The translations under genes and the position numbers were made by a program. A stretch of 63,834 nucleotides of DNA, filler included, from Dimargaris cristalligena (taxonomy: Eukaryota), in NCBI GenBank assembly GCA_003614675.1. It is 18 parts of 18 records of this genome, joined end to end, with 100 filler letters (N's around TTAATTAATTAA, not from the genome) between each part and the next. Parts side by side here need not be neighbours in the genome. Positions count along the whole stretch, not along the records: positions 46,251 to 49,694 come from ML003942.1; positions 49,795 to 53,232 come from ML003943.1; positions 53,333 to 56,767 come from ML003944.1; positions 56,868 to 60,301 come from ML003945.1; positions 60,402 to 63,834 come from ML003946.1; 13 more parts are not named here. The stretch is one strand, 5' to 3'. Shown piece after piece: positions 1-63,205 of this stretch. The number at the start of each line of letters is the position of its first letter. The first letter of the stretch is position 1. The notes under the pieces were generated by a model. The model ran no database searches and had not been told where the DNA came from. It saw only the letters and a program-made list of their open reading frames with translations.

Positions 1-1
1 A

Positions 2-301: not shown

Positions 302-730
302 CTAGTGGGGTGGCATGGACGATGTTGGATCATTGTTATCATGGTTGAGTGGAGGCTGTGCCGCAGAAGGAGGAGGAGGAGGAGGCAGCGAGACAATCGA
401 TGCAGTGTGGGCCATGTCCACGCCATTGCTGCCTGCATCATTCATAGGAGAAGGAGCAGCATCATTGCTATCCTCGATGGTGGGCGTCATATCCACCGGT
501 GTCGCCATAAGCTCGTCCTCCTCCACTGCGTCTGCTACTGCATCTGCTGCTGCAACGATGGGTGTGGCTGGACTGTCGACCTCCATCGTATGGATACCGG
601 GCGGCATGGGCGTGGTGGGCGCGCTTGAACTGGGCGTGGCACTGCCAGCGGGCAGCAGATTGATATTCACAGGTGTATTGGCGCTGGACTGATGTGGCTG
701 CCGATCAGTATCCGGTCTGGCAGTCTCGTC
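302..730 (-). CDS. Low-complexity Pro/Ala/Asp-rich coding segment, probably a terminal exon of a hypothetical gene
   Basis: Open frame with disordered-protein composition, convergent with PGK. No convincing ATG at the 5' end of the open frame. Confidence 0.3.
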   Translation of the reverse strand, partial: DETARPDTDRQPHQSSANTPVNINLLPAGSATPSSSAPTTPMPPGIHTMEVDSPATPIVAAADAVADAVEEDELMATPVDMTPTIEDSNDAAPSPMNDAGSNGVDMAHTASIVSLPPPPPPSAAQPPLNHDNNDPTSSMPPH

Positions 731-822
731 AAATGCATATAATTAAAACTAATAAGCATGCCACATGCCATGCATAGAATGAACATCCAACGATTTATCA
801 ATAAACACTAGTAGCATCGCCA

Positions 823-1791: not shown

Positions 1792-2089
1792 AATGACAAC
1801 AGTAGTCCACGCACGCGCGGGAGCAGCTAAAGACGACAAAGAAGAAGAAAGCGAGGTGAGAGGTGAGAGAGAGAGAGAGCAAGAGAAAGAGAAAGGATCG
1901 GATGTGTGCACGGCATCATCGTCGGCCATTCATTCTCTCACCGCCACCTTACATGTGTGTGTGTGCACTAGAATCATTGTTTATTGTCCAGCCATCCCGG
2001 TGATTAATCTGTACGTTGCAAGCATCGACGATGCACTGCACCGATGGCTTCGTTGAGCAGTTGTACTAGCGTGCTGTATCATGCATTAG

Positions 2090-3736: not shown

Positions 3737-4320
3737 TATCAGCCCTTCTAATCCAACTTAATCTGGACCCAATAATCATCTGCCCTTATTAGGCCTTATA
3801 GTACTATAATAACCTCCCCATAGTCACCCCTGGTACTATAGGATCATCCTATATTATATAACTGTTCCCCTTCCAGACTCTATAGTTTGCACTAATCACT
3901 CCCATGTAGATCTAATAACTCTTCTGGTTCCCAATAGAGTCTTCTAAGTCCCCACAGCTGTCTAGTTGGCTTATTCATTATACCATTAGTCTTAGTAGTA
4001 CCTTCCCTGAGGACCTCCCTTTGGAGTCATCCTCCACATATATATAACTGGCCCCCATTGGGACCAGTTCAATTACTTAGTTTATTCCAACCCCTAGTTT
4101 ATCCTAATAAATACTATATATACTCACACCCTTTATACTGACTAGTAAGTGTGCCTACTGCATAACCCTTGTGTGTACCTGCATTCTAGTAATCTTTATT
4201 AGTTAGTATCACACCCCTACCTAGTGCTAGGACCCACTTGGCTAAGTCTAAGCCCCATCTACTGTTAGATGCCTATCCTTGGGACTCTTGATGGACTAAG
4301 AGTGGTTAACCCAGGTGACA
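3737..4320 (+). mobile_element. Solo LTR, family A (~550-590 bp)
   Basis: TATCAGCCCTTC...GACTAAGAGTGGTTAACCCAGGTGACA. The family consensus has TGTC...GACA termini. Confidence 0.85.
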
Positions 4321-5322
4321 GGGATGGTGCATTTTTAAAACCAGCAGTTATGTGGGTTATTTATAGACTATCTGCAGATCACCTTCCTAATTCTTAAAAT
4401 ATATTTAAGGGTGAAGGAATACTGTATCCCCCTAGGGTGTGTATGCCAAGAAAACAAGGGGTATATAAAGGATTAACAAATGTGAGGGAGAGAAGAATGT
4501 GTTTAGGGTAGTATATAGTAAGTACCCATAAGATCACTGAGTCCCCCCTTTTTTCTTTCCCCCATCACATATGATCATTTATATATTCACCCCCATTATT
4601 TCTTTAACCTATCCTATGCAGGTGCACTTTCCAAAAACCCAATAATAAATATATTACATAATAGTGAATGTAAAGGTTAGTCAACAGCAGATCAATTTGT
4701 ACAAAGGGTCCAGAAATAGTGAGTTAACTCAGTGATGCCTTTCTAAACTGTTTGGCTGCCATATCATTAAGATTGTCATAAAATCTGCTCTGGAAAATGC
4801 CAGACAAACGGAATGACTAATGAACTCTGCATAGCCCACTGAGTGATATCCAAAGTACAGGCTTGTTAAACCAACCATTTAGTTTGTACCCCATTAAGCT
4901 GATATTTATGCAAGTACCTGTACAGGATATATTATCTTTTTGATAATGCAATATACCCCAGGGTAGAGACCAGGTATTTTTAGGTACCAGAATAACCAAC
5001 CTCTAAGTTCACATTTACTCTCTCAGTTAGTTGAACTCATAAATTGGTATATTGGTAAATTGGTTTATATTGTTGTTTCTAACCTAGTGGTCGAGGCCTG
5101 CCCTGCCAATAATGACATGACAGTACCTTTGCCAGAAGGTGGTGGGGTTAGGGACCTGGTTATTCAGATACCCCAACTAACAATGAATACTAAACCTATC
5201 CACAAGTAGTAGTATGCCCAACCCTTGATGCTTGCTATCATACAAGGTTACCTTAAGGGTCCAAGGCCCAGTGGAGACAATCTCATACATATTGTATATT
5301 ATTAGCAGTCTCACAATAGAAT

Positions 5323-5906
5323 TATCAGCTCTTCTAATCCAACTTAATCCAGATATAATGATTGTCTATCCCTATTAGGCCTTATAGCACCCTATTAACC
5401 TTCCCATGGTCACCCCCAGTACTATGGGATCACCCTATATCATATAACTGTTCCCCTTCCAGACTCCTTGGTTTACACTAATCACACCCATACTGATCTG
5501 ACAACTCTTCTGGTACCCAACAGAGTCTTCCAAGTCCTCGAGGTTGTCTGGTTGGCTTCTTTATCATACCTTAGTCATAGTAGTATCCTCCTTTAGGGAC
5601 CTCCCTCTGGAGTCACCTCTATATATATATAACCAGGCCCCACTGGGACTGGTTCAATTCCTTAGCTTATTATTACCCCCTTAGTTAATCCCAATAAACC
5701 ATATATACACTCACCCTCTTGTATTGACTAGTAAGTATGCTTGCTATATATCCCTTACTTATACCTACATTTAGTAGCCTTTATTAATTAGTACTGTGCC
5801 CCCAACCTAATACTGGGATCCACTTGGCCGAACCTAAGCCCTGTCTATTGTTAGAAGCCTATCCTCAGGACTCTTGATAGACTAAGAGTGGTTAACCCAG
5901 GTAATA
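5323..5906 (+). mobile_element. Solo LTR, family A
   Basis: Collinear with 3737-4320, with decayed termini TATC...GTAATA. Confidence 0.85.
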
Positions 5907-12352: not shown

Positions 12353-12897
12353 TGTCACCCAGGTTATCTACTCTTATTCCATCAAGAGTCCCAGGGTTAG
12401 GCTTCTAATGGTAGGCGGGGCTTAGACTTGGACAAGTGGGCTACTAGCATCAGGTACAGGGTGGTACTAACCAAATAAAGGTTTAGTGTGGTTGGATATG
12501 CAAGGGACATGCAGTGGTACACACTTACTGATCAGTACAATGGGTGAGTGTATATGGGGAGTTTATTGGGAGTAAACTAAGGGGGTATAAATAAGCGCTG
12601 GAACTTAACCAGGCCCCCTTGGGACCAGTTATATATATGCAGGGACAACTCCAAAGGGAGGTCCCTAAGGGAAAGTACTATGAAACTAAGGTATCAATAA
12701 TTAGGCCAGCCAGATAGTCCTTGTATCTGGAAGACTCTCATGGGAACCAGAAGAGTCTTAAGATCAATAGCAGAGTGATTATTGTGAACACTGGGGGTCC
12801 AGCCAGATAGTGGGTATATGATAAATGATGGTGCTATAAGGCCTAATATGGTGGGTGATCATCTAGCCCAGATTAGGTCAGATTAGAAGGGCCAACA
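12353..12897 (-). mobile_element. Solo LTR, family A, with 5-bp TSD ATGAT
   Basis: TGTCACC...GCCAACA flanked by ATGAT at 12348-12352 and 12898-12902. Confidence 0.92.
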
Positions 12898-16463: not shown

Positions 16464-17047
16464 TGTAAGACCTACTAATCTGACTTAATCCAGGCACAGT
16501 AAACACCCATCCCAACTAGGCCATATAGAGCCATATGTAACTTCCCATGGTCACCCCCAGTGCTATGGGATCCTCCTATATCATATAACCCTCCCCCTTC
16601 TGGACTCCACTTCTTTACACTAATCACTCCATTGCTGATCCAAAGACTCTTCTGGTTACCATTAGAGTCTTCCAGGTCCTCATGGCTGTCCAGTTGGCTT
16701 ATTCATCATATTATTGGTCTAGTAGTATCTCCTCTTGGGGCCTCCCTCTGGAGCTGCCCCCCACATATATATAACTGGGCCCCCTTGGGACCAGTTAAGA
16801 TTCCTTAGCTTATTCTTATCCCCTAGTTTACCTCATATAAACTTTATATGCACTCACCCCCATGTACTGACCAGTAAGTGTGCCCACTGCACATCCCTTA
16901 CATACATGATTGCCTATGCCTTTATTAGTTAGTACTGTACCCCTACCTGACATTAGTAGCCTGCCTAGCCAAGTCTATGCCCCACCTACCATTAGAAGCC
17001 TATTCCCAAGACTCTTGATGGACTAAGAGTGGTAAATTTGGGTGACA
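16464..17047 (+). mobile_element. Solo LTR, family A
   Basis: TGTAAG...GGTGACA, flanked by TCATT and TTATT (a TSD with one C>T change). Confidence 0.88.
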
Positions 17048-28979: not shown

Positions 28980-30004
28980 ATGGCCTGCCTCCGCTCTAAC
29001 AAAATCACCCTCTGCGTCACCTCCTGCGACCAGTGGATCGGCTTCAGCTTCTGCTATGGGATGCTGCATGGCAAGGCCCGCGACTGTATCGAGAGAATCT
29101 ACTGTGGTGTGACCGATGAGAACCGCGAGTGGGCCAAGATGCTCCGCAAGGAGGACCGTGTGCACCTGTTCAAGTACAGCGAGGACCACATGCAGGATAT
29201 CGGCAAGTACTTCAAGGAAACATGGCCGTGATCCTGGTGCCCGTCCACCAGCACCTCTCCCAGTCCGGCGAACAGCATGTTCCCAAACTGTGGAAGTGTT
29301 TCCTGGAGTGCGCCATGGAAGTCCAGGTGCGGTGCCTGACCATGCTGTCGGTGCTTAATCTCGACAAGGCCGAGGGCCAGCACCTGAAGATGCTCCACCA
29401 CATGGAGAAAATGTTCAAGGAGTGCATCGAGGGAGGCGGCCACGGCCAGCACCGTGGTCACCAGATGCACGGCCTGGTCCTCCGGATGGCCCTGCCCATG
29501 GAACACCTGTACTTCTTCCAGGACCGCATCCAGGGTGAGAGCCAGATCCCCCTACCCCTCAAGGACCATAAGTTTGCCTCCATGGCCATGTTCGACTTGG
29601 CCACCGGGTACCTGCGTCTGGTGGGTAAGCACATGAAGCAACATGAGGTAATCTGCGGTGTTGATGAGCAGGATATCTGGCTGTCCAAGGGCAAGATGCA
29701 CCTAATCTGTGCCACGGGCCCTGAGAAGGTGACCGGCAAATGTATTGCCGAGGAGGCCAGCAGTGCCCTGGACACCAAGTTCGAGTTCAAGCGCATTTCC
29801 ATGGACGAGCTCAAGCACTGCCTCAAGGAACACGGCTACCTGCGTGAGGAGGAGATTTCATGTATGGTGGAGATTTTTGAGCACATCAACAAGGGCCACA
29901 TGGATGAAGTGACCAAGGACCTCGAGAAGATGCTAGGCCACAAGCCCACCACAGTCAAGCAGTTCTTCCAGCACTACGAGAAGGACTTCAAGCCCCAGCA
30001 CTAG
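28980..30004 (+). CDS. NmrA-like/atypical SDR (NAD(P)-binding Rossmann) protein with a 1-nt frameshift near 29220
   Basis: N-terminus TLCVTSCDQWIG and C-terminus VTKDLEKMLGHKPTTVKQFF are typical of NmrA-like proteins. Strong C/G third-position bias in both frames. ORF1 stops at 29231 while the -1 frame continues MAVILVP. Confidence 0.7.
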
Positions 30005-31366: not shown

Positions 31367-31949
31367 TGTTGCCCAGGTTAACCACTCTTAGTCTATCAAG
31401 AGTCCCAGGGATAAGCTTCTAATAGCAGATGGGGCTTAGGCTCAGCCAAGTGGGTCTTAGCATTAGGTTAGGGGCATGGTATGAACTAATAAAGGCTACT
31501 AGATGCAGGTATAAGTAAGGGACATATGGCAAGTATACTTACTAGTCAATAAAAGGGGAGTGGGTGTATATATGGTTTATTGGGATAAACTAGGGGGTAA
31601 GAATAAGCTAAGGAATTTAACCAGTCCCAATGGGGCCCAGTTATATATATGCAGGGACAACTCCAGAGGGAGGTCCCTAGTGAAGGATACTACTAAGACT
31701 AAGGTAAGGTAAATAGGCCAACTGGATGGCCATGGGGACTTGGAAGACTCTGATGGTAGCTGGAAGAGTCTTTGGATTGGCACTAGAGTGATTAGTGTGA
31801 AATAAGGAGTCTGGAAGGGGAATAGTTATATACTATAGAGTGATCCTATAGTACTGGGGGTGACCATGGGGAGGTTGATATGGTGCTATAAGGCCTAATA
31901 GAGATGGGCAGTATTGTGTCTGGATTAAGGCAGATTAGAAGGGCTAACA
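31367..31949 (-). mobile_element. Solo LTR, family A
   Basis: TGTTGCCCAGG...GGGCTAACA. Confidence 0.87.
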
Positions 31950-46147: not shown

Positions 46148-47013
46148 CCTNNNNNNNNNNNNNNNNNNNNNNNNNNNNNNNNNNNNNNNNNNNNTTAATT
46201 AATTAANNNNNNNNNNNNNNNNNNNNNNNNNNNNNNNNNNNNNNNNNNNNGATAAGACTAAAAAAAGAGTTCATGCTAAGTAGTTGTATGGCGTAATTCC
46301 AAGAAGGAATCCACCGGAGACTGGTTATTCCCAAGCCCCATTCATATAGGATTGTCAATAGTATAAAAGTAGTGATATAAAGTAGTCAATCATCATGGGT
46401 TAAAATCACCATTGATTTCGACGACCTATAACTTCGTCAATAATAAACGTAAAAACAAATGGAAGTATGATTTGGAAAGCTGAAGGAAAGGAGAATCGGT
46501 TAGCATAAAGAAATATTATAATAAGTTCAGCCCCGGACTATTCCCATGGGACTGACTCATCAATCATCCGGTGACCTTAAATCCACCCAAAGTATTACTA
46601 CTTTCTGGATTGATAACTGGTACTGGTGCTTACACGACCTTGACCCAGCTGCCCACGGCAGCACATATATCGAGGAAAGGGGGTACTTTCAAGGCCATAT
46701 ACCATAGTCAATATAGGGTGTGATCTGTGGGCCACGTTATCCACAGCTGCTGGACTTGTAGTTGGTAATGATGTAACTTTATCATGCTTACAGACAGTCG
46801 AAGACAAAATATGCGATAGGAATAGCAACAATTATAAGTTTAGGTACAATTTTTTATATTGTGACCTGTTCGTTAAGATGCGTGTAGGATATAAGTATAC
46901 TTCCATCGTAATCAAAAGTCGGAGGGCATTAGTCAATATATATATATAGTCAAATAGCGATTTAAGTTGCCAGGTTTCGCGAATATATGTTCACAATGAT
47001 CACAAGTGGCTGG

Positions 47014-48303
47014 CTACTCCCCATGTTGATTTTTCATGTGCACATTGAGATTACTCTTCCAAGAAAAAGATTTCTGGCAATGCACGCAGTCAAAAGACTT
47101 ATCCCTGCTGTGTATTTGGGCATGGGCAGTGAGTGCGCTTTTGCGCGGAAACATTTTTTGGCAAATATCACAGGAAAAAGTCTTCTCGTTGGAATGGGTT
47201 TGCATATGTTCATTGAGGGTGGATTTCCGTGAAAATGCCTTGCCACAATCAACGCAGGGATAGGGCTTCTCCCCGGTGTGTATTTTGGTGTGACTACGTC
47301 GATGCCCAGATGTTTTAAATGATGAGTCGCATATAGTGCAGGAGAAGGGCTTCTCCCCGGTATGCGTTCGCAAATGGTCATCGAGATTTCTTTGTAGTGC
47401 AAATGATTTGTCGCAAATATTGCAGCTATAGGGCTTCTCCTTAGTGTGGGTTCGTGTATGGACCCGGAGACGGCTGGCAAAGTCAAATACTTTACCACAA
47501 ATTTGGCAGATATGTGGAGTTTCCCTGGTATGATCTAACATATGTTTGTTGAGAGATACCAGCTGTATATACACTTTGTCGCACTTCGTACAGGGATAAG
47601 GCTTCGCTTCGATAGAGGAATTGGCACCAGTTTTGAGTCGTTTCTGGGTCGTGGTTGGGCTGTTACGTTGATCATAGGCGTACAGTTTTCTATCCTTGGG
47701 CGACGCTGGTTGTTTTTTATGACGAAGAGGTCCCGTAGGTCTGGTTTGTGGGTGACGGCGACTCTCGGGATCTAATTCCGCCGCTGCCTTTTCCTGACTC
47801 TCGAGCGGACGGCCTCCGGATGGCGAGGCACTTGCAACGACGGGTTTTTCATCCACATCAGATGAATAGTTGAACAGAGTTGATGTCAAAGTGGCATTAT
47901 CTACCTCACTGCCCGCATCAATTGTGTCGTCGATATCGTTCTCTAGACGGGGAATGCTCCCAAACGGCATGAGTTGATTGTTGAGATAGATAGAGCCAAG
48001 CGCAGCTTCTATTTGGTCGAGCTCCATTATTTCACTCCCATCCATGGTCTGCCTGGCTTGGCCAGTGAATTGTCCGAATTCGTTCCCGTCGAATTGACCT
48101 ATTCGATTAATGGTCTCTGATAATGGTGGGTCCTCGGTGTAAGAACCGGGGACGATACCCATGTTTGTGTCGCCAGTACTGAGCGGGTGGTCATGGGGAT
48201 AGTTGATATAGTCGTCGAAGTTGAATTCGGGATCGTACTCTTCAGAGGCACGGGCTAGGGAGAGAAACGCCAGAATAAAACCGACTGTTTTAACCACCCG
48301 CAT
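47014..48303 (-). CDS. Signal-peptide-bearing C2H2 (Kruppel) zinc-finger protein, 7 fingers, 429 aa
   Basis: The first in-frame ATG gives MRVVKTVGFILAFLSLARA|SEE, then an acidic region, basic patches (RHKK, KRLK) and seven C-x2-C...H-x3/4-H fingers with TGEKP-type linkers. Confidence 0.9.
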   Translation of the reverse strand: MRVVKTVGFILAFLSLARASEEYDPEFNFDDYINYPHDHPLSTGDTNMGIVPGSYTEDPPLSETINRIGQFDGNEFGQFTGQARQTMDGSEIMELDQIEAALGSIYLNNQLMPFGSIPRLENDIDDTIDAGSEVDNATLTSTLFNYSSDVDEKPVVASASPSGGRPLESQEKAAAELDPESRRHPQTRPTGPLRHKKQPASPKDRKLYAYDQRNSPTTTQKRLKTGANSSIEAKPYPCTKCDKVYIQLVSLNKHMLDHTRETPHICQICGKVFDFASRLRVHTRTHTKEKPYSCNICDKSFALQRNLDDHLRTHTGEKPFSCTICDSSFKTSGHRRSHTKIHTGEKPYPCVDCGKAFSRKSTLNEHMQTHSNEKTFSCDICQKMFPRKSALTAHAQIHSRDKSFDCVHCQKSFSWKSNLNVHMKNQHGE

Positions 48304-49859
48304 CTTTGGACTGCTGCTTAAGAGTTCTTGCGGAAAGTGGACGGTAAGGGAGTATCGCTGGAGACAGAAACGGAAGCGGCAAAACAACAACCAAGAAAAC
48401 TACGTTAATTACTAAAACAATCTGTAAATTCGTCGCTAAATGTATGTTGTGGGGCTGAAAAAAAATATAAGTTGATGTAAACGCGAAAATGCTAAACGAT
48501 GGGTGCACTGGGGGGAGACGTGTCATTGCAAAAATAGGGAGGGCTAGTGTATATTTATAAATTTATGGCTTTTATGGGAAGACACATAGGATGGGCACTA
48601 ACGAAAAAATAATACTTACCAGGCACATGGTGCGACGCCTTGTGTAATAAAATCCACTAATGCCATGTCGTTAAGGTCGAGGCCGTGGTTACATTGTTCA
48701 ACAACGCCTGCATGAGTGCAGCTTCACTATTAATTGAATTCACGATGCCTCTATTAATGGTACGCCTTTCCTCTACGGGACCCTTCTCAATCACAGCCGG
48801 GAAAAGGGCGCTGTCGATACCGGCGAGGAGTTATGCGCAAGTGATACAGGTGTGTATCACACATAGCGGACGGAACCACTAAACAGCCAATGAATTGAAC
48901 GAAGTGGCCCTTTTTTTTTTAATGGCGCTGTTTTGACCAGATGGTATACACTAATATATAGACTTATACAACAGGGATTAGGACCACTGTAGGACTATGC
49001 CCTCAAACTGCTACACTTGGGAACGCAAGGGAATAGTGCTACCTTTCAACCAGTGTGGTCTAAGGGCGTTTAGACCAGCCCCCTAGTTGAAAAAAATATA
49101 CGGAATGCTCATTGAGTTAGAGGAGGCATTCCCGGGTGTAGCTGCAGCTATATTGCCACTAATATTCGGTCTGATGCAGTTGAGTTAAGGAATATTAATG
49201 GGGAACTTGTCTCCTTTTCTGGGTGTCCCGGTGCTGAAGAGCGGGTTTCTTCACTACCATGAATAGAGGCCTCGGTCAGGTTATAATGAACATAGGAGGG
49301 GGGTTAGGCATCTTAGCGACCTATACGTCCGAGGCATACAATATACACGGAGATATTGCGACAATTTTTTTATTCAAAACCCCATTTAAAAAAAAATCTA
49401 CTCGAATTCGTAGTGTCGTAAAAGTCAAGTAAAGTAGCGAACAAAATACGGATGTTCCGAGTCAATTAGGGCTCCCCGAAAAATGCCCATAGTGTAATAT
49501 TTGTTGGAATGCATCTCCCCCCGAGTGCCATATACTGTATCGGACATTTGGAGCGATCCTATTGGCCCAAGTCATCTCTAATAAATACTGTCGCAGAGTG
49601 TTGGAAATATGGATTTGATAGTAAACGCAAGTACCTTCTAATACAACTAAAATGTTTTAAAGAAGAGAGAAAGAACCGCAAGGGGCAAGGCTAGNNNNNN
49701 NNNNNNNNNNNNNNNNNNNNNNNNNNNNNNNNNNNNNNTTAATTAATTAANNNNNNNNNNNNNNNNNNNNNNNNNNNNNNNNNNNNNNNNNNNNAGTATT
49801 ACCTATCCTTTGTGATGACTAATATTATTATCTGGGAACTCCCCTCCCTCTCCCTCTGC

Positions 49860-50061
49860 TTAGTCATCCAATATTCTGGGACCTTCTCTCCCTTTCTTTA
49901 TTATTCATTTATCTTTTCATTTAGGCTTCCCCTTTTGAGTATAAATACTCCCCCTTGCTACCATCTCTTGGAACAGTAAATCTATTATTACCTTTCCCTT
50001 CTTATCATCTATTCTTTTGAATAAAGTTCAGTTTTCAAGGATTTAATTTTAGTTCTTTATA
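49860..50061 (+). repeat. LTR family C, 3' part
   Basis: GAGTATAAATACTCCCCC...AATAAAGTTCAG...TTCTTTATA. Confidence 0.75.
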
Positions 50062-51429
50062 ACAGGGCTGAGGGATATGGGATGCTGGATAAAGGGATGG
50101 CCATAAATAAGTACTAATATACACCTACTAATAATATGAGAATGTAGATGGGCTTTTAAAGAAACTAAGGGGAAAATAGGCCATAAGGTCTTAGTAGGTC
50201 TTCACCTGGAGAGTAAATTTATATGCAAGGATGCTTCTATAAGGGGGTCATCCTAGAACTCCTAACATCAATATCAGTCAGACACCAATGGTATCCAAAA
50301 ATTACTCTTATAGGAACAGGAACAGTCCTTGGGTCAATGGTTGATAAGGAGTTATTGGGCAACTTGGCTCTGGTCTATGACCAAGAATTTACCCTTGGCA
50401 AGTTGATAAAAAAATTAGGAGAATAACATTGTACTGGAAATAACCCCTGGCTTTTAGACAAAAAGTACATGTATTGCTGCCTTGAATTCCTTGGGAATTT
50501 GTCCATGCTGACCATCATATGGGCAGCTCACAATGAAGAGGATTAACCTACTATAGCCCTATACACATGCCCTATCAGCTTTAAGGACCCTCTAATAAAT
50601 ACCACATCATTAGTTCTCTGATAGAAGCAGGGGAGTACTTTGAGGGAGTGGATTGGGGCCCTCACAGACCATATATATGTCAAGCATAGCCAAAGTGGTT
50701 GATAACATCTACATGCCTGATGGCTAATTAAGAATAAGGTTAATGTCTATACTAATTCAATTAGCATTAATATTATAAATTATAGTTGTATTAGTCTGCA
50801 TAGCCCCATTCTTAAAATACCAAACCAATTAATAAAGAAACAGCCAAGGGAATCGGAGGACATGAGAGTTCATTATTAATACCAATAAGCTGGAAATAAG
50901 GCGGGATTAAAAAAAAAGGTGGGGGGTGTATGAGGTGAAATGTAATCTAAGCCATGTAAACGAAAATACATGTAGGTGGGATAACGTAGGGAGTGCCGGT
51001 TAAACACTAAAACGAACCGGGTATTAGAATCCAATAATAAAAATCAAGGGCCATTAAAATTCCTCGGTGGTTAAATTTAGTTAGAAATGAATGACATGTA
51101 GTTATATATTTTTTTTAGAAAAATAAATATATCTATTTAAAAAAATAATAATTAAAAAACAGCCAAATAGCAAGGAGTAGTAGAGGTGAAGCGAGGTGAG
51201 GTTGAGAAACAAAGAGATGGAGCGATGAGAGCAGGGATATGTGAGAACAACAAATTAAAGGGAATAAATAGGTGAGGAGCAAAAAACAATTGGAGGGGAG
51301 AAGTAAGACAAGAAAGGGCTATCTCAAGGACTCTCCCTTCTCTCTGATCTACTACACCGAAGCCCACACACACACATTCCTACGACTACTACTACTACTC
51401 CTACTCCTCGTGTGATAACCGACCCCGCT

Positions 51430-52506
51430 TTATTCGCGTTTCTTGGCGGGGATAGCAGTAGCCGAAGTCGCTGGTCGCTCATCGGCATCCGATTCATCCG
51501 AACTACGATTATCGGCGGCCTCCTGGCCACTCACCACCCGTGAAATGACCCGAATGATCAGGACAAACCAGAAGATGATAATGATCTGCAGTAGGGCAAA
51601 CAGGAACAAAAAGAAGTACTGCATGTGGTCCGAATAATAGTATTCGCTCGGGGGGTCAAAAGCGCCGTGGATGATCCGCCGGGAATCGGCGTAGGTACTG
51701 TACACAATGACGCCGAATAAGATGTGCCGAGTGACGATCCAGACCAGCACGAACAGGCCGAACATGAAATCGCATAGGGTTTGGAAACCAATGTAGCGGA
51801 GGACCTTGGCACTGCACAGGAAGATATCGGCGAAATCCATGACACACAGCACGGCATTGCCGACCCGGGTGAAATGGGTGAAATACGATGATATGATCAA
51901 AGCGCACGTTATCACATGGTGGCACAGCATTTGCCAGTAGTCTTTGCGCTGCTCCTCGACCTGCAGGACAAAGAACTGCTGCAGCCAAAATGCCATGGAC
52001 CAGAGATAATACCGCTTGAAGCGACCGGTCATGTAAATGTGCGGGTAATCGATCCAGTATTGCTGGGTGTCGAACCAGTGTGGCAGCTCACTCATCAGGA
52101 GTAGACCCGCGGTCCATGACGAGGCGTAGAATATCACCAACCAAAGCTGTTCGCAGAAGCGGTCGATTTTAAACTTGTTTTTCAGTCCGTTCCAGGCGGC
52201 GAGGGGTTGGAGCACGTAGGTCATGATCGAGGCCCGGATGAGCGTGAAGCCGAGAATGCCGAACAGGACAAAGTAGAAGTCATCCCAGTGGTTGCGGTAC
52301 AGCGGGTCAGTCAACGGGGCCACGGGAGGACTGCCGGCGGGGAGGGCGTGGGAGGCGGCGGCGACGGCATCGGCGGTGGCGGCGGGACTGTAACCAGCGA
52401 GTTCGATGAACTTGGAGGCGCCCGGAACACCCAGCGCATAGCTCAGGAGAATCGCACCAATGAACGTGGCTGATAGCTCGATTTGGTTGTTCACGATGTA
52501 ACTCAT
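51430..52506 (-). CDS. LAG1: Ceramide synthase (TLC domain, LAG1/LAC1 family)
   Basis: Lag1 motif RKDYWQMLCHHVIT...GNAVLCVMDFADIFL, RFCEQLW, and C-terminal DNRSSDE. Likely start MSYIV at 52506. Confidence 0.92.
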   Translation of the reverse strand: MSYIVNNQIELSATFIGAILLSYALGVPGASKFIELAGYSPAATADAVAAASHALPAGSPPVAPLTDPLYRNHWDDFYFVLFGILGFTLIRASIMTYVLQPLAAWNGLKNKFKIDRFCEQLWLVIFYASSWTAGLLLMSELPHWFDTQQYWIDYPHIYMTGRFKRYYLWSMAFWLQQFFVLQVEEQRKDYWQMLCHHVITCALIISSYFTHFTRVGNAVLCVMDFADIFLCSAKVLRYIGFQTLCDFMFGLFVLVWIVTRHILFGVIVYSTYADSRRIIHGAFDPPSEYYYSDHMQYFFLFLFALLQIIIIFWFVLIIRVISRVVSGQEAADNRSSDESDADERPATSATAIPAKKRE

Positions 52507-54453
52507 GGCGGACACTCTGGGAATGAGGAGAGGGAGGGGGAGAAGGAGGAAGTGGGGGAGGTAGGAATGTGAAACGGGGGAGACTCTACGTAGGCACACC
52601 CCCTGGAAGGAAGAAAATAGAACTGGGGTGCGGTTATTAGGGGAATAAGGGATGAAGGAGAAAGGGAATGCCAAGAAGGGGATAAAAGTTATGGCGGTGG
52701 TTTAGGATGCCGTGACCTGGCGAAGAGAGGGTCAGTAGTAGTAGTAGTAGTAGTAGTAGCAGTAGTAAATTAGTAGTAGTATAGGATCAGCTAAGTGGTA
52801 TTAGCTTGGTAAGAAATAAGAAAGTCGCTTGACTCTCGGTATAAAACTGGACGGGATTAAAAGAAGGGCAACGACCGACCAACCAGTTAGATGGCTATGA
52901 AGGAGCAATGAGGAGGAGAAGGTGTGCTTAAAATAGGTCTCCAGCAAAGTTATATAATTAACTAACTAACTACCTAATTAATTATATAAATAAAGGAGAG
53001 CAGCCAGTCAGGAACTAATGAGTAGAAGTATAAGTAGGTGACAAACGAACGGAAAAACAAATGCCCGATACCTGCCTAGAAAAACAGACACCAAGTTATT
53101 GTAAGCCTACAACCACGGGGCGGGTGTATAGCGTTAGAAATGGAAACGGGTACGAGAGGAAGAACGCTATGTGATATTGTTACGTTTGGTCGTGGTGGAC
53201 TAGTATTTAGGGGAGCCGAGTAGGACGTAGGGNNNNNNNNNNNNNNNNNNNNNNNNNNNNNNNNNNNNNNNNNNNNTTAATTAATTAANNNNNNNNNNNN
53301 NNNNNNNNNNNNNNNNNNNNNNNNNNNNNNNNTTCTGGGACATATACTTCTTGACATAAATGTCTTTTAGATTGTAATATTACTTTTGAAATTGTAGAAA
53401 CCCCATCAGTGTCAGCAATGGGGAGGTGGCTTATAACATCAATTAAATTGAAATAGCCACTTTCCATTATGCTGTTTTTATTATATATTTTTTCAATTAA
53501 AAATTCAACCTGTATTTTAATTGCTATTTTACTAATCTAGAATTTATAGGATATTTCTTGCATCCCTCATATTTGTATTTTGAATGTTAATATCTCACAG
53601 ATTAAATGCCTTTTTGTATCCCGAAAATGAACAGCATGCTTTATCAGCTGCATCGAACCCCGAGTATACACAATTCGAGTTTCAGCCCATATCCACCCAC
53701 ATTCCGACTAGGCTTATGCCAGAACAATACGTCTGCTGCACTACTACTTCAATGAATTATTACGCGATAAGGAATTTCCTGTACATTATCCTCATCAACC
53801 CTCCAGCCACTTGTCAATATCTCAATGTAAGAGTAAATATTACTCTTCACATCATAGTATTGTTACTTCTAACCCAATTGCTGAGTGCAGTTCTATTGGG
53901 ACTAATGTGGCACCATACTTGGTAAATGGTAGTGTGCTTGGGGACCACAACAACCAGGGTGCTGGCTATCCAGAAACCCTGGTCATGGACAAAGTTGAAC
54001 CCCTGCCTAAAAAGCCATATATGTATCAGGGCCTTCCAACAACAATCTATATCCCTTCCTTGCTGACCCAATTTTCCAATCTTGCTTGTAACCCATACTC
54101 CCTCAAGTAGTCCTGGTCAGTCTACATCAGTGCCCATTGCAGATTCATTCATCTCCTTGGCATCAACATTCTAGGCTCACTCTCTTGGTATCAACTAGAT
54201 TTACCTTTCCGACCCATCTATAGCATCTCCACCTGTTCATCATAATGATAATCATCATTGTGTTATTTACCATTTTTGCCAAATAGCACCCCTCCATATT
54301 GACAACCCCAGCCCTCCATTTCCCCTCTGGATAGGCTATAATATTCAAGGTGTTTTCCTATAAAGCAACCTAGGGGCTGCAAAATTCAGTATTATTGGAC
54401 TATATTTTGTTGAATTATAAAAGCCATATTGTCTATTTATTTTTATCTATAAT

Positions 54454-55000
54454 TGTCGGCCCTCCCAATCCTACCTAAATGTTGAAGTACTGATTGTCCT
54501 GTCCTATCTTGCCTTATAGCACCATATTACCCCTCTTCTATCATATAACCCCTATGACTGGCCTCCAACACTTCACACATAACACTCCACTGGCTGATCT
54601 AACAACCCCCCTGGTTCCCATAAGAGTCCTCCAGAAGCAAGGACACCCAGTCAGACTCCTTCCTTCCTTAACTAGTCTTTATCATATTCCCCTTGGGACC
54701 TCTCATTACAAGTGGTCCCCATGCATAAATAGCCAGGCCCCTCTGGGACCAGCTAGTTCCTTAGCTTATTCTTACCCCTATAGTTTACCCCTAATAAACT
54801 CACTATACACTTACCCACTGCATTAACCAGTAAGTGTGCCCACTGCACAACCCTTGCATTAGCTACACTTCTCCTTTATTGGTTAGTACTGATCCCACCC
54901 TAATTCTAGTAGCCTGCTTAGCCAAGTCTAAGCCCCACCTACTGTTAGAAGCCTATCCCCAAGACTCTTGTTAGACTAAGAGGGGTCAACTTGGGTGACA
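54454..55000 (+). mobile_element. Solo LTR, family A
   Basis: Intact termini TGTCGGCC...GGGTGACA. Confidence 0.88.
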
Positions 55001-55730
55001 ATTAATAAAACTAACTATATAAAGTTTTTAACTAAAGTAATCCAATATGAAAAATACTTGTTTGGAAGCTCAAAAGGTTGGTCCTTGGCAACCACAACTT
55101 GAAGTATATAAACCAAATATCCACAGTAGTTATAGAGGCAGTTTTATTTTAAAAGAAATATGAAAGAAAATTGATACCCAAAATTTAATATAAAGAAATT
55201 AATACTTAAATTTGACATACAGAAAAAAAGAGGGGAAAAAGTTTCCCTTCTATATAAAAATATGCATACTAATGTATGTACCAATCACCTACATGCATAG
55301 CCCAACCAAGTACATCAATGGTGCATATTTAATCTAAAATAATGCTAAGACCTTTAGCTCTATAATAAAAAATACCAAGCTATTCTCTGTATAGGACTGA
55401 GAATTATTAAAACCAATAAGCCTATAGTAAACCTACATAACCAATTAAAAGGGGAAAGAGAATTCATAAAGTAGAACCTATAAAGTAAAGAATATAACTA
55501 AAGTGCTACTAATAATCATATATGAATATGCATATCTAATCATAGGGATAGTATGCATCCACCAATAGAAATAGAAATAAAATTGAAGGAAAAATTTATA
55601 TAGAAGGAATAGGTTAAAAGGGAAGGGAAAAAAACTGGATATACTAGATAAAAAAGCCACTTCATACCTTATATATAAATATAATAATAAAATAATAATA
55701 GTTTGTACCTATGGTAATCAAGGGGACACT

Positions 55731-56667
55731 CTACCTTGCCACAGTAGTGGCTTGGTGGGACTTGGGCAACACTAGGTGGTTCGGCCTACTGGGTCCCTGC
55801 TGGTAGTGGAGTTGTTCATTGATTATAAATGTCTGATTCTTCCCACAAAACTTGCAGAATGTCTGGTCTTCCATTGAGTCACATAGGTTCTTAATGTTAG
55901 GGCCCACCAGTTGGTCCTGGAGCATTAGGGTCAGGGGGACAGTTATAGCAAGGATGATAGCCTGTGCATCAGTGGAACCAAAGCCGGAGGGGCTGTATTC
56001 TGTTTCATCCAGGATGGCGGTTTCAAGCAGGAGAGGGGCCTCATATTGCTGGAAGATAAGCTGAGCAATATGGTCTCCCAGCTGGAAGTGGAGCATTTCG
56101 GTAATGAGGTTGTGTATGAGTACCTGGATTTCTCCATGGAAGTCAGCATCAATAGCCCTACCTCTGATGGCAATGCAGCACAGGCTCAGGGAGCTATATT
56201 CTCAGATAAGGGACACCATGGGTGGTTCTATTTGAAGGGCCCATCCTCTCACTACTTTGGTGTATTGGTGTAGTACTAGGTCAAATTCAGTGACACACAC
56301 AAGGTCATAGCCTGTGGAACTGGGGGTGGCCTACATGGGTAGGATGGCCTTTGGGTGGCAATGTTTGATGGTGAGCATGGGGGAGTTGGTCTTGGGGCCA
56401 ATGTAGCTGACCAGGGTTTTGTCCCGTAAGTCTACCACCTGCAGGGTAGCTAGCCAAGATAGTCCATCAGCATTACTGTGCACTCAGCTGGGGCAGTTTT
56501 GGATAGCAAAATTGTATTCCTATAGAGTTAGATACCAGTATTTAAGGCAGCCTAAATGTGGGGTGGTGGAGCAGAGCCATTGTAGTGGTATGTGGTCTGT
56601 TTCAATAGTAAAATACTGTCTGTACAGGTATGGCCAGAACTTTTTTAGTGCAAATAGGATTGCTAGG
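55731..56667 (-). pseudogene. Degenerate Ty3/gypsy pol fragment: RNase H, dUTPase, pre-integrase linker
   Basis: RNase H LAILFALKKFWPYLY...TDHIPLQWL...HSNADGLS, then dUTPase STGYDL, RIAP, GDHIAQLI, SGFGST, then HLVLP. Several stops and frameshifts. Confidence 0.85.
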
Positions 56668-56767
56668 TGTGGTGAACTTACCACATTTTTTACCTACTTT
56701 TATTTTTAATCCATTTTTCGCACTTATTGGAAGTATGCCCCTGATGAGTGAATGAGCCCCTGCCCCT
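56668..56767 (-). repeat. LTR family B end inserted into the RNase H of the dUTPase element
   Basis: TGTGGTGAACTTACC is the reverse complement of the family B 3' end and interrupts coding sequence. Confidence 0.75.
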
Positions 56768-56867
56768 NNNNNNNNNNNNNNNNNNNNNNNNNNNNNNNNN
56801 NNNNNNNNNNNTTAATTAATTAANNNNNNNNNNNNNNNNNNNNNNNNNNNNNNNNNNNNNNNNNNNN

Positions 56868-57016
56868 ACAATATAATAATGAAAATGGAGGAAAAATGAC
56901 CATACTCATCAGGGGCAGGGGCAGGGGCTCATTCACTCATCAGGGGCGTACTTCCAAAAAGTGCAAAAAATAGATCAAAAATAAAAGCAGGTAAAAAATG
57001 AGGTAAGTTCACCACA
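56868..57016 (+). repeat. LTR family B, 3' end
   Basis: Matches 3593-3726. Confidence 0.75.
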
Positions 57017-60000
57017 GACTAGACTAGAAATGGTCAAAACTTCAGCAGTCAAGGGATATTTCCCAGTTTAAAAAACTACTAAGGGAAAAAACCTAGCCAT
57101 CCCCCAAACAATCAACCAGGATCAGCACTGACCAGCTAATTACAGCTGACTAATACCCCACAATAGGCCTGGGGTAAGTGGCCCTATCACAGATGACTGA
57201 ACACTACAGGAAACTGGACAACAGGATTGCTCCCAAGGGCTGCTTATTCCACTTTCACCCCCAGTGGCTCTGATTAACCAAGGACCCCTGGGTACACCAG
57301 GTTATCCAATTTGGGTATCAGGTAATATGGAAATCCACCCCCATATAGGAGATACCCCAACCTTTCCATACCACAACCATCAACTAGGCCAGGATCACCA
57401 AAGTAATTAATAAATTATGCCAGTGCCAGGCCCTGGAACTAGGCAAGACCAACCAGCAAGGCTACTACTCAAACCTGTTTATAAAATAGGAAGTGGACAA
57501 ATGATGACCACTAGTGGATTTGCACCAAATCAACTAATTCATTTGTATTCCCCAGTTCAAAATGGAGGGTCTAACTGTATTCAACTCCATGGTTACCCCT
57601 GGGGCTTAATTGACTAAGGTGGATATCAAGGATGCCTACTTAACAGTCCCTATCCACCAGGATTCCCACCCATTCCTTTCCATACAATGCTAGGGCCAGG
57701 TATACCAGTACTGGTCCCTACCTTTTGGCCTGGCTACAGCCCCAGTGGTTTTTTCCCGGGTCATGAAGACTGCCATCAAACCACTTCAGGCCCAGGGAAT
57801 TGTATTATCCTATTACCTAGGCAATATAGCCATTATATCCCCATCATTTACCAAGGTGCAGAGGGATTTGGCCATAGTTTTAGGTCATCTACAAACCCTG
57901 GGGTTCCCTATCAACTGGAAGAAATTAATTCTGACCCCCACCCAGTAGATGGACTTCCTGGGGATGACTATCAATATCCAGCAGATGCAGATATTCCTAC
58001 CCAATAAGAAATGTCAATCAATCCTGTGGGGCTGCCAGTTATTTCAAGCCCAAATAGTCCCTGCCTACAAGATGGCCTCTATCTTGGGTACCCTAACTTC
58101 AGCTCTACCAGTAGTACCCAATGGACTAATCCACCTACACCAACTCCAGTGCTGCTTGATCCAGCAGAACCAGACATGGACTGAGCCCATTCAAATCGAA
58201 CCCTGGGCCCAGCTGGAGTTAGAATGGTGGGTCCAACAAGTGCAGACCAATTTGGGGATACCCCTGCACAAGGACCTACAGCCTACTATGACCATCTTCA
58301 CAGATGCATCCGAAACAGGCTATGGGATTGTGAGCCTGATCCTCCATTAGGCTGGACTCTGGTCCCCTACCAACCAGTTATAAACCATCAACTGGAAGGA
58401 ACTCAAGGTGGTTGAACTGGCTATTAATCAACTACCAGCTCAGATTTGGGACCAGTCCCTACTACTTCAGACAGACAATACTACTGTCCTAAAGTATATC
58501 AATCGGCAGGGGGGTACTCGAGTACCAACCCTACAATCACTAGCCCTTGCGATTTCCAATAAATTAACCTACCAAAAATTAACTCCAAGGGCAGTGCATA
58601 TCCTAGGCAACTATAATACCAAAGCCAATCAGTTGAGCAGGATAACCCCAGCCTACCAGGAATTAGTACTCCCAGCCCCATTATCCCAGCACCTGAATTC
58701 GAAATGGGGGCCACTGAGGATTGACCTCTTTACCAGTCCCCTCAATCGTCAACTTCCCCAGTATTATTACCTTTATCCCCACCGGCAGAAACCTTTGAAG
58801 GATATGTTTCAATTTCCTTAGCCTCAGGAAAACGCCTATGCCTTTCCACCATGGAACCAGATCCACTATGTGATCAATTGGGTTCTGCAATGCAAATTGA
58901 CCCTGATCCTAGTAACCCCATATTGGTGGACCCAATCCTGGCTTCCTTGCCTACTCCCGATAGTTGTAGATTATCCACTATTACTACTGACCCCACAGCT
59001 CCTGTTAATTGCCTAGAAGATATCAGGGCAATCCTCAAAAAGCAGGGTATTTCGCTGGCAATTGCCACCAGTGTCTGCCAGGGACTGCGTAACAATACTA
59101 ACAAGGCCTACCAGTATGCCTGGCAAAAGTTTGCCCATTGGTGCCTATCTCAGCAAAAGAATCATTGCTAACTGGATGCCTTAAACCTGTTAAATTATCT
59201 GCCTGGACTTTCCAAAATGGCCAGTATCCATACCATCAAACTCCACAAGGTGGCTATTATTTCTACCTGGGACATCAGGTACCCAGGTCATCCAGTATCA
59301 AAACACCAACATCTCAATCTATTTGTACGAAGCTTGGGCCGTTTAGTGTGGCCTACTGAGAAACCCCCCATCTGGTGGGTGGAACAGCTTATTGACCATT
59401 TGGCCAACCTTCCGGATAATGATGCATTGCTGTAGCACCGACTCTGCCAGAAAGTCTTGGCCATACTATGTCTAACCACCATGTGGCGACCGCGTAGCGA
59501 TTTTGCCCAAGTAACCCTGGATTCTGTAACTTTTCACCAGGAGAGTGACCAGCCTGAGGTCATCATGATTACGGCATACCATGCCAAAGAGGGTAAACAA
59601 AAATCGATCAATATCCAGGCCTTGGAAGATAGTTCCCGACTATACCTGGTCCGTAATACCCGGTTTTACATTGACAAGCCCTATACCTTCCGTCAACCTA
59701 AAGAACAGGCCCTATTCATTACCAAGCGGGGCCATATGGCGTCGGAGGATACTCTGGGTAACTGGATCAAATCCCTGTTACAGGAGGCCCAGATCGATAC
59801 CAACGTCTTTTTGGCCCATTCCATTCGGGCTGCCGCGTCTACAGCGGCCTACCAACTCAGGTTTAGCCAGGAAGATATTATGAAAGCTGCCAATTGGCGC
59901 GTCTGGACTACGTTTATGGACTATTACAACCGGCCAACTCCGCATAAGAATGTGGCCCGATCGGTCCTGACGAATTATTCCCATGATAGAAGGGGTAATA

Positions 60001-60301
60001 ATGATTAAACGAGCCTGCGACGTTTAATAGGGCGATTACCTCTTCTATCATCGAATCCCACCCTAATTATTAGCAAACTAACCAATCATCGAACTAGTAT
60101 TATTCTATCATCGAAATTCATTATTTTATTATTAATATTATTAGCAAATTACTTCATCGAGCCCGTCCCCATCTTATTAATTGTTTTTCTGGACTTAAGT
60201 TCCGGCCTTGAAAAGGGTCTATAGTACTACCAGGGCGGGTGAGGCCTGCCATATATACCCAAGGGCATATAGGGGCCTCGGAAAAATTACTAAATAAAGC
60301 A
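57017..60301 (+). mobile_element. DIRS-type tyrosine-recombinase retrotransposon (RT, RNase H, methyltransferase-like, YR), decayed
   Basis: RT FKMEG, DIKDAY, LPFGLATAP, YLGN (decayed YLDD). RH TDAS, TDNTT, INRQGG. MT-like IDLF...N...AFPPW...TPYW. YR R...HSIR...ANW...YY overlapping in another frame. Many stops. Confidence 0.93.
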
Positions 60302-60401
60302 NNNNNNNNNNNNNNNNNNNNNNNNNNNNNNNNNNNNNNNNNNNNTTAATTAATTAANNNNNNNNNNNNNNNNNNNNNNNNNNNNNNNNNNNNNNNNNNN
60401 N

Positions 60402-60555
60402 ATCTATCTTTTCATTTAGGCTTCCTCTTTTGAGTATAAATACTCCCCCTTACTGCCACCTCTTGGAACAGTAAGTCTATTATCACCTTTCCCTTCTTAT
60501 GATCTATTTTTCAAATAAACTTCAGTTTTCAAAGATTTGATTTCAGTTCTTTACA
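60402..60555 (+). repeat. LTR family C 3' end, nested in a family A LTR
   Basis: Ends TTCTTTACA and is followed by mid-family-A sequence. Confidence 0.75.
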
Positions 60556-60964
60556 CCAACAACTCTTCTGGTTACCCTCAGAGTCTTCCAGATACTTGCA
60601 GCCATCTAGTTAGCCTATTTACCTATACCTTAGTCTTAGTAGTATCCTTCCCTTAGGACCTTCCTCTGGAGTCACCCTCATGTATATATAACTGGGCCCC
60701 ATTGGGACTAGTTAGATTCTTTAGCTTATTCCTACCCCCTAGTTTACCCTAATAAACTCTATATATGATTACCCCCTCTTGTACTGACTAGTAAGTGTGC
60801 CTGCTGTACATCCCTTACCTATACCTATACCTAGCCTTTATTAGTTAGTACTGGGCCTTGCACCTAATACTAGTAACCCACTTAGCCAAGCCTAAGCCCT
60901 GCCTACCATCAGAAACCCATCCTTGGGACTCTTAATGGACTAAGAGTGGTTAACCCAGGTGACA
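60556..60964 (+). mobile_element. LTR family A, 3' portion
   Basis: ACAACTCTTCTGG...TAACCCAGGTGACA. Confidence 0.85.
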
Positions 60965-61644
60965 GAAGGAATGAGGGGATGAGGGGATAGATGGATAGAT
61001 GGGTGTGTATGGGCTTCTGTACTTTGTTAAGCTTCTATAAGTAAATAAGGTTTTGTACTATGGTTATTTATAGTAATAAAGTTCACAGGACTCATAACCT
61101 GTTAGAATATTAATGGGATGGTAAAACACAAGCTTTATTGAATCGAAATGGAATTACTAGTAAAAGTCAAAATGAATCATGAAGAAAACCACAATTAGAA
61201 ATAACAACTTCAATTGAGTTGTTTTATTGAATAGAGACCGCGCCCATAAGAATGAAAGGGGACGTGGTTATGGAGGGAGAATAAAATACCACCCAAAGGA
61301 GCTATGAGGGAATCGTGTTAGGTCACGTGATTTCTAACATCTGCAACTGGTGCTACCTACAAAGTCGGCAATTGTCCTGAAAAGAAACGAATTAACTGAC
61401 TATATATAAATAACTATATGGCTCTTCCTTCTTAGTTTTACCCCCAATACTTCACTTAAACCACACCATCTTTGAGTATGACACTTGTACGGACCACTTC
61501 TTAAAAAGTCTGCTTTTATCTAAAAATACTTTAACTAATATATGACCTGGGATTAGGTTAAATAACTAAATAACGAATGTGTGAATATATGTTTTCAAAA
61601 GATGGAGGTGGTTGTATCAACAATGGGGTCTCATGGCCGAATTT

Positions 61645-63205
61645 CTATACGATACCTTCAGGATCTAACGGCCCAGCAGAATTATCCGCATCCGACAAAA
61701 AGGTGGGAACGGCTAGTGAAATTGGGCTGTGGTTCAGGGGATAGAAATGCATTATGACCCTGCCGTCTTTTTCCAAAGAAATTGGGGTGGCATGAAAATG
61801 AAATCGGGAGAAGCAATCAACCTTGTCCATGTCTGATTGATCGACCGACACGCTTGGGCGAGGTTCCTCCGAAGGGGCTGCCCAACCCTCTGGGAGGTGG
61901 TCTACAGCTGTCCATTTTTCTTGTAGGGCACAATAGACCAGCTCCCGACGGGACAGCCCCTCGGGTTCAGAGACCAATATCCCGTTGGCTAACCTCATTT
62001 TCCCCTAAAAAATGGCAGCCAATGCAGCCATGTTCCGATCACGATCATTTAAAACACTTTGCCCGGACCCGGACGTATTGGTTCTAGACTGATGGGTAAT
62101 TCGGGCCGTATCCTGGAGCTGGTTTAAATCGCCCGACTGCGTCGCTAGATAGGTAGTAGCCTGAGCCAAGGTGATGTGGAGGTCACACTGAAAGTACATT
62201 GGAATAAAACTAGTTCGTCGCTGATTCAGGTAAGCGGTTGCGGACATGCGATAATCTCTGGTGTGAAGGTCAACCTTTAGGATTTTCAGAAGATTGACAT
62301 AATTTTCCGGTACCCTGCCAGGTGGGCCGTGTCGCATGGCATCAGTGAACGCTGGGGTGTACATGAAGTCCACTGCTGGCTTAAGGTGATCCAAGTCACC
62401 CGTACAAATGACATTGATAATGGGAAAATAGGCATCCATGATTTCGTTCGAGCTTGAGTCAACATGGATGACAAAGCGGTTCTCATGGAGCCATTTGAGC
62501 TCTGGTTTGAAAGCTGCAATGGCATGCAGGACTAGGGATTTTATAGTAGATCCTACCTTGGAGCCTTCCGAATCTAGCTTTCGATTGCCTAGCGTATCAA
62601 AACCAAGCGATTCCAAATGATCGTAAATCAATTGAACCACGATTGAGCGCATAAGATTGCTGCAAAGCGGACTAAAATCATCGAGTAATGTACTATCTAG
62701 AGTGGTGGTATTGGAACTCCTGGCCAGATGTCTAGTGGAGACGAGCATAAATTTTTGCATGGTCTACGCATAGAAGTGTGATATTTAAATATATACATTG
62801 TAAGAAGTCGGAGGGGCAATGCGTTATAAAAGATGGCCAAGCATATTTTCCAGCTACGGGGAATACGGCACCAAACCAGGCACTGCCGCAGTTAAAATAA
62901 ACAATTCAATAGTTGTCCAATTAACAATTAAGCCAGTGGCGTTAAATCATAAATTGGCGGCTTCCATAATCTACGGCCTGATATAAATTTATCTTGGCAT
63001 TCCAGGCAATCTGCGTTCGCAGAATAGTGGCCCGCCATGTTTTGCTCACATTCATGGCGTTTAGTTGGTCAAGCTGAGATAAATGGCTGATAGTTTCGTG
63101 TTGAAGCTCCGCTGGCAGTTTGTCTATTATACCACTGGGCATGGCAGATACCATTGGGCTCAGCAGGGCCAGATGATACAAGTCGACGGAAATGGATACT
63201 TTCAT
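61645..63205 (-). pseudogene. Signal peptide + F-box protein gene, apparently disrupted
   Basis: MKVSISVDLYHLALLSPMVSA|MP followed by an F-box (IDKLPAELQHETISHLSQLDQLNAMNVSKTWRATI), stop at 62942-62944. Downstream frames 62005-62760 and 61645-61998 are in frame, separated only by TAG at 62005-62007. Confidence 0.6.

Follow-up and report, generated by a model that had tools for sequence, protein, structure and literature searches.

A 63,834-nt stretch of Dimargaris cristalligena DNA (GCA_003614675.1; hereafter the window) carries, on separate contigs, two unrelated genes that had been proposed to encode translocated effectors. Our analysis suggests that one of them, encoding a C2H2 zinc finger protein, is a candidate secreted nuclear effector, while the other, an F-box gene, is ordinary and interrupted, a reading to which we assign just short of an even chance. 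Only the C2H2 gene has the claimed architecture of a signal joined to an intracellular domain. Judged from its sequence, it is fairly probable that the C2H2 protein enters the secretory pathway; that it acts in the nucleus of a host is a further step on which we would place somewhat less than half of our confidence. The window comprises 18 contigs of 3339–3492 bp joined by N44-TTAATTAATTAA-N44 spacers, and the span originally assigned to the two genes (47014–63205), running from the stop codon of the contig 14 gene to the start codon of the contig 18 gene, is not a single locus: it crosses four spacers and unrelated DNA and touches five unlinked contigs of ~3.4 kb.

The C2H2 open reading frame (ORF; 47014–48303, minus strand, as are all features of this gene) encodes 429 amino acids (aa) and ends in a stop codon at 47014–47016. 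It matches the Pfam families zf-C2H2 (E=8.2e-38) and zf-H2C2_2 (E=3.7e-40), and a regular expression resolves seven tandem Krueppel-type C2H2 zinc fingers at aa 238–427 (47017–47598), arranged as C-x2-C-x12-H-x3-4-H units with a 28-residue spacing and TGEKP-like linkers. At the N-terminus, aa 1–19 (MRVVKTVGFILAFLSLARA; 48247–48303) make up a signal-peptide-like segment, in which two basic residues are followed by an 11-residue uncharged hydrophobic core, alanines at positions −3 and −1, and then an acidic stretch. Behind the putative cleavage site, a conserved acidic/aromatic motif opens an acidic, cysteine-free region (aa 20–180; 47764–48246) with 33 D/E and 6 K/R. This is joined to the fingers by a basic linker (aa 181–235; 47599–47763) whose 14 K/R, as against 3 D/E, resemble, by composition alone, a nuclear localization signal (NLS) of the kind looked for in MoHTR-type effectors (see below). 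The AlphaFold model of aa 1–235, built from the family alignment, had a mean predicted local distance difference test (pLDDT) value of 40.1 and was uninformative on the fold. At the other end of the protein, the stop codon occupies the Lys position of a GEKP-type linker, and the frame beyond it is finger-like with decayed histidine positions (46936–47013), which we interpret as a decayed eighth finger in frame 3′ of the stop. A nonsense mutation thus seems to have truncated the finger array.

Signal-like N-termini were scored with a crude rule of our own for n-, h- and c-regions, applied to the 104 ATG-started window ORFs of at least 60 aa. While 13 of these passed, the C2H2 ORF ranked first, with a score of 32.1. 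Of 50,000 random N-termini drawn to match the composition of the real proteins in the window, 194 (0.39%) attained this score, and the C2H2 N-terminus is well above chance for a single protein. Two other identities of the segment were rejected: a transmembrane anchor appears unlikely with an uncharged core of only 11 residues, and a mitochondrial presequence with a core that is uniformly hydrophobic rather than amphipathic.

Further evidence comes from the relatives of the N-terminal module. A HMMER scan of 1.84 billion representative sequences with aa 1–235 returned five matches (P0004–P0008), all of 116–211 aa: P0004 (192 aa, about 54–55% identity, alignment starting at residue 1), P0005 (H4R33_004614 of D. 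cristalligena, 211 aa, the one match in a search of proteins of 30–234 aa), P0006 (129 aa), and the fragments P0007 and P0008, which start further in and fall short of the N-terminus. A word-indexed search among proteins of 235–751 aa found no relatives of this module. Its relatives are either named as Dimargaris or unnamed, and none lies outside the five clusters. Since Met1, an uncharged hydrophobic core and small −3 and −1 residues are retained in every homologue that extends to the N-terminus (P0004, P0005, P0006), the signal-like N-terminus is, judging from the alignment, a trait of a small C2H2 family and not a one-off accident; all three also pass the crude rule. The best-conserved part of the alignment is the acidic/aromatic motif right after the putative cleavage site. 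Between the window protein and P0005, 54 of the first 60 aligned residues are identical, as opposed to 67/131 in the rest, with two large deletions, and such a conserved N-terminus in front of a divergent body is a pattern known from effector families. The C-terminal end of P0005 holds one finger-like unit that, at 22.7 bits, stays under the Pfam cut-off of 25.2. Five representative clusters in 1.84 billion do not amount to the expanded repertoire that the original prediction had envisaged. Besides, a metagenome scan with the C2H2 N-terminus gave 247 pattern matches but no relatives by tblastn, the ESM Atlas offered no usable match for it, no further copy of either the C2H2 or the F-box N-terminal module was found in the window below E=1 (tblastn), and homologue searches with either gene returned no near-identical named protein, which may mean that the window stems from a different isolate or a sister species, or that contigs this small lack annotation elsewhere.

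The F-box gene occupies 61645–63205 on contig 18 (minus strand, as are all of its parts; ORF of exon 1, 62942–63205). Under our splice model, exon 1 encodes 77 aa (62975–63205) and includes the F-box domain at aa 27–62 (63020–63127), which Pfam recognised with E=6.3e-07 and 29.5 bits versus a cut-off of 20.5, with the same result on the 77-aa exon. Both domain calls of the original prediction, C2H2 array and F-box, are thereby confirmed. The sole homologue of the F-box body among 6942 candidates, P0003 (H4R33_003608 of D. cristalligena; 43% identity over 95% of the query, E=2.7e-77), extends without a break from the latter half of the F-box through to the C-terminal region, and on this basis we place a putative 211-nt phase-0 intron (GTAGAT ... 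GCGTAG) at about 62764–62974, the exact splice sites being inferred. Behind the F-box, where SCF (Skp1–Cullin–F-box) adaptors have their substrate-binding domain, follows a conserved region of ~370 aa with 43% identity to P0003, to which no Pfam family matched. Its first part (252 aa; 62008–62763) ends at an in-frame TAG (62005–62007) that faces Gln275 of P0003, and its second part consists of 119 open, conserved codons (61648–62004) before the final stop (61645–61647). The alignment of the F-box body with P0003 (151/355 identical, one gap) passes through the TAG ungapped, and contigs of four runs, taken from two studies, all carry the TAG unaltered; one or more of these runs may be the window's own source. 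Because the TAG aligns to Gln275, conserved codons follow it and it is the same in all four runs, the F-box gene has probably become a pseudogene recently or represents a truncated allele. An intron of 51 or 53 nt that would remove the TAG was rejected, as the homologue aligns ungapped with conserved residues there. Neither the AlphaFold model of the F-box body, made from P0003 and the window pieces (mean pLDDT 37.0, unusable), nor the ESM Atlas search with P0003 (best score 0.80, to bacterial and viral hypothetical clusters) was informative. One of the runs (X4) shows three differences from the window over 1901 bases (at 61752, 62977 and 63270), one of which would replace Ala by Thr where the F-box exon ends; this suggests another isolate or allele of this organism.

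A signal-like N-terminus, originally claimed for both proteins, is supported by our rule for the C2H2 protein and not for the F-box protein. The supposed F-box signal (aa 1–21; 63143–63205) ranked seventh of the 104 ORFs, with a score of 18.9 and an 8-residue core, and 2068 of the 50,000 random N-termini (4.1%) scored as high. It contains Asp8 and His11, and the alternative starts Met18 (63152–63154) and Met22 (63140–63142) closely precede the F-box. The F-box 'signal' does not rise above chance and arises from reading at the first ATG; P0003, as annotated, starts inside the F-box and has no signal. From its sequence, the F-box protein is best described as the product of an ordinary cytosolic SCF-adaptor gene. 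The count of two contigs out of 18 therefore stands for contigs, not for signal fusions, and what had been presented as a recurrent architecture comes down to one good case.

The best-surviving alternative is that both genes encode intracellular proteins of the parasite itself, with the C2H2 protein as a nuclear transcription factor and the F-box protein as a cytosolic adaptor, and we grant it a substantial minority of our confidence. The hydrophobic stretch of the C2H2 protein would then be untranslated as an N-terminus, or be a conserved structural or regulatory helix, or constitute a false positive inherited by recent paralogues. The position of the start codon bears on this interpretation. 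The frame is open for 32 codons upstream of Met1 (stop-to-stop ORF 47017–48399), and the 18 in-frame codons that adjoin Met1 (48304–48357) are either a 5′ leader or, if spliced, a coding N-terminal extension. Of the residues they would encode, 17/18 are the same as in P0005, and they start directly after a pyrimidine tract and CAG. These could mark the 3′ end of a candidate intron of 262 nt (48358–48619) that begins with GTAAGT, preceded by a candidate first coding exon of just 9 nt (ATGTGCCTG; 48620–48628) with CACC 5′ of its ATG and the GTAAGT on its 3′ side. Both P0005 and P0006 open with exactly three residues of this kind, after which the 18-residue stretch comes next, and the D. cristalligena annotation of the paralogue P0005 begins at the upstream start. 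A spliced start may hence add 21 residues to the N-terminus of the C2H2 protein, in which case the hydrophobic core would begin at residue 28 and the crude rule is passed once a long n-region is allowed. A start further downstream is unlikely because Met48, the next possible one, is not conserved in the family alignment, which speaks against the hydrophobic stretch being left untranslated. A hydrophobic core within the first 40 residues is expected to engage the secretory pathway, and either of the two plausible starts would leave it there. Moreover, the core is uncharged and positions −3 and −1 are small even in P0004, for all its overall divergence.

Several points nevertheless weigh against secretion of the C2H2 protein and, more broadly, against the reading that we prefer. 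The C2H2 signal call was made with our own crude rule, and the corresponding chance rate, while low for one protein, is not negligible proteome-wide: it would place tens of such N-termini on non-secreted proteins in a genome of ~10,000 genes. The conserved open frame upstream, together with a candidate 9-nt exon bearing a perfect donor 262 nt away, points to a possible upstream start, which would leave 26 residues before the hydrophobic core, long for a signal peptide. With 429 aa and seven fingers, an acidic region and a basic stretch, the protein has the standard build of an endogenous activator and resembles an ordinary transcription factor of the fungus itself, unlike the small, one-finger MoHTRs. 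The N-termini of the paralogues are so close that their conservation may reflect recency alone, and the high identity to P0005 in this part could stem from recent gene conversion instead of selection. All other family members found are shorter than 235 aa, so the family may be decaying or badly modelled. Finally, the start of P0003 inside the F-box says little about the true N-terminus of that family.

If the C2H2 protein is secreted as we tentatively propose, its nascent chain would be targeted to the endoplasmic reticulum and its signal cleaved after Ala19, and the protein would be released at the haustorial interface, from where the host hypha would take it up. There, the basic stretch would direct import into the host nucleus, where the fingers could bind host DNA and the acidic region serve as an activation domain. 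A DNA-binding activator made by a pathogen, equipped with an acidic activation domain as well as an NLS and delivered to host nuclei, has a precedent in the TAL (transcription activator-like) effectors of Xanthomonas; these are bacterial, depend on type III delivery, use another DNA-binding repeat and share no homology with the window protein, which limits the analogy to mechanism. Extended to its relatives, the reading would have Dimargaris export a lineage-specific family of complete transcription activators into mucoralean host nuclei and thereby rewrite host expression, each exported member combining a signal peptide, the acidic/aromatic motif as a possible uptake signal, an activation region, an NLS and a programmable multi-finger array. 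We consider this extended reading rather unlikely. Were it true, this would be the first nuclear effector family from one fungus that acts on another. A truly secreted C2H2 protein would already offer a concrete candidate for the means by which a haustorial mycoparasite controls the cell of a closely related host, and its seven-finger array would permit prediction of host targets. At present, it stands as a single candidate gene with in-silico support, to which the F-box gene adds none.

The closest parallel in architecture is found in Magnaporthe oryzae, for which excerpts of one report list 20 predicted secreted proteins with DNA-binding domains, half of them C2H2, and place MoHTR1 and MoHTR2 in rice nuclei (PMC7672089); a further case, MoHTR3, is described as small in the abstract of another (PMC10189765). 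By these accounts, the C2H2 domain of the MoHTRs lies behind a signal peptide and is flanked by basic residues or an NLS, a layout that the signal-like segment, basic stretch and fingers of the window protein resemble. A biotrophic fungal structure secretes the MoHTRs, which then reprogram transcription from within host nuclei (PMC7672089, PMC10189765). The MoHTRs act in a plant, while the host of the window protein would be a fungus; besides, MoHTR1 and MoHTR2 are compared, in the excerpted text, with the single-finger GAGA (PMC7672089), as opposed to 429 aa, seven Krueppel-type fingers and a 160-residue acidic region here. The C2H2 protein would, if exported as outlined above, represent a fungus-to-fungus counterpart of the MoHTR nuclear effectors. 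With ordinary fungal Krueppel-type C2H2 factors it shares tandem fingers, TGEKP-like linkers, an acidic region and a basic stretch, but these lack the N-terminal signal-like segment. Transcription-factor-like nuclear effectors are established for bacteria and, by the excerpts cited above, for a plant-pathogenic fungus (PMC7672089). That the original prediction knew of no characterised system of this kind between fungi agrees with the literature searched, in which the titles and abstract starts listed named no characterised fungus-to-fungus nuclear effector; the combination of signal peptide and C2H2 domain as such is not new, given the fungus-to-plant cases in those excerpts (PMC7672089, PMC10189765). 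In the main text of a study on zygomycete secretomes (PMC9391592), the terms Dimargaris, zinc finger, C2H2 and F-box do not occur, though its supplements might list domain contents.

That both proteins are secreted into a host fungus as part of an expanded repertoire taking over host transcription and proteolysis, with the F-box protein mimicking SCF adaptors, as the original prediction had it in full, appears highly improbable to us. The source organism does fit: excerpts of two reports describe Dimargaritales as haustorial mycoparasites of Mucorales and Ascomycota (PMC3734964, PMC9866270), and P0003 and P0005 carry the name Dimargaris cristalligena, so that a non-parasitic source, which would have refuted the original prediction, is not what we find, although a contribution of host DNA from dual culture is conceivable. 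The C2H2 half is plausible, and F-box effectors exist elsewhere, namely SSGP-71 of the Hessian fly and RipG7 of Ralstonia (excerpts of PMC4617103). Like SSGP-71 and the RipG/GALA proteins described there, the window protein has its F-box near the N-terminus and could recruit host Skp1 (PMC4617103). Those effectors, however, have leucine-rich repeats (LRRs) following the F-box and are delivered by a proven route, again by the excerpted text (PMC4617103), whereas the window protein shows no Pfam family in that place (scanning the window pieces and P0003 against Pfam brought up no LRR family), its signal scores no better than chance and its frame is interrupted by a stop that recurs in contigs of all four runs. 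Its one homologue lacks a signal as annotated, and the titles listed from the literature searched named no secreted fungal F-box effector. Nor do the two proteins share a post-signal motif: the F-box, which begins five residues after the supposed cleavage site, does not resemble the acidic motif of the C2H2 family. The lack of other copies of either N-terminal module in the window, the five family clusters for the C2H2 module and the lone homologue of the F-box body likewise argue against a repertoire. A proximity to transposable elements, which had been suggested as a further mark, applies to one gene at most: contig 18 starts with a dispersed repeat (60402–60965, no strand assigned; 72–94% identity to several other contigs by blastn), ~680 bp beyond the 3′ end of the F-box gene, while contig 14 shares nothing with other contigs. 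Such proximity says little in any case, because the contigs are all small and were probably broken at repeats.

Very hard to credit is the notion that the C2H2 family is decaying or repeat-associated and without current function, the long frame of the window copy being fortuitous: although the other members are fragments, a stop at a linker position truncates the window array in front of a decayed eighth finger, and the 3.4-kb contig of the gene belongs to a window made up mostly of transposon debris, the window copy retains 429 uninterrupted codons with seven intact fingers and intact linkers, contig 14 has no repeat in common with the other 17 contigs, and the short matches may be gene-calling artefacts of fragmented assemblies.

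Regarding the remainder of the window, a Pfam scan covered 56 of the 68 stop-to-stop ORFs of at least 100 aa; the 12 others lie on contigs 14, 15, 17 and 18, and five of these were scanned separately, at coordinates that were the same or nearly so. Of the 56, nine matched a Pfam family (PNP_UDP_1, NAPRTase in two ORFs, SAP, SYO1-like, Ty3-type pol, dUTPase, tyrosine recombinase and a weak helicase match), among them four cellular genes if the NAPRTase pair is counted as one. Contigs 15–17, which fall inside the span between our two genes, hold a TLC-domain ceramide-synthase-like gene and retroelement debris. Counting the C2H2, F-box and TLC genes, the window contains about seven recognisable cellular genes, and the remainder is mostly transposon-derived. 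Rfam gave no match in the whole window.

A dispersed repeat of ~400 bp recurs at 72–79% identity on many of the 18 contigs (besides 60402–60965 on contig 18, e.g. at 3914–4321, 5501–5902, 12353–12756, 16640–17047, 31376–31775 and 54601–55000), and contig ends have shorter pieces in common, with 90–94% identity; the assembly probably broke at these repeats. On contig 17, an ORF on the plus strand (57618–60008) encodes a tyrosine recombinase (Phage_integrase, E=1.6e-07) and adjoins retroelement-like ORFs, and an ORF on contig 2 (6049–6594, plus strand) resembles this recombinase by eye, with no Pfam match. The pairing of a recombinase with retroelement-like ORFs suggests DIRS-type retroelements. 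A dUTPase-like ORF (55734–56201, minus strand; E=5.4e-10), located on an otherwise repeat-like contig, may represent a retroelement-borne dUTPase.

On contig 9, a 294-codon frame without a Pfam family is open on the plus strand (29120–30001), with long opposite-strand frames over the same stretch. Contig 1 (1–3492) has a G+C content of 57%, compared with 39–51% in the other 17 contigs, and carries a gene of the purine/uridine phosphorylase family (PNP_UDP_1, E=1.3e-39). It could belong to a different genomic compartment or be DNA of another organism, e.g. of the host from a dual culture, in which, as excerpts of one report indicate, host DNA can be carried along (PMC3734964).

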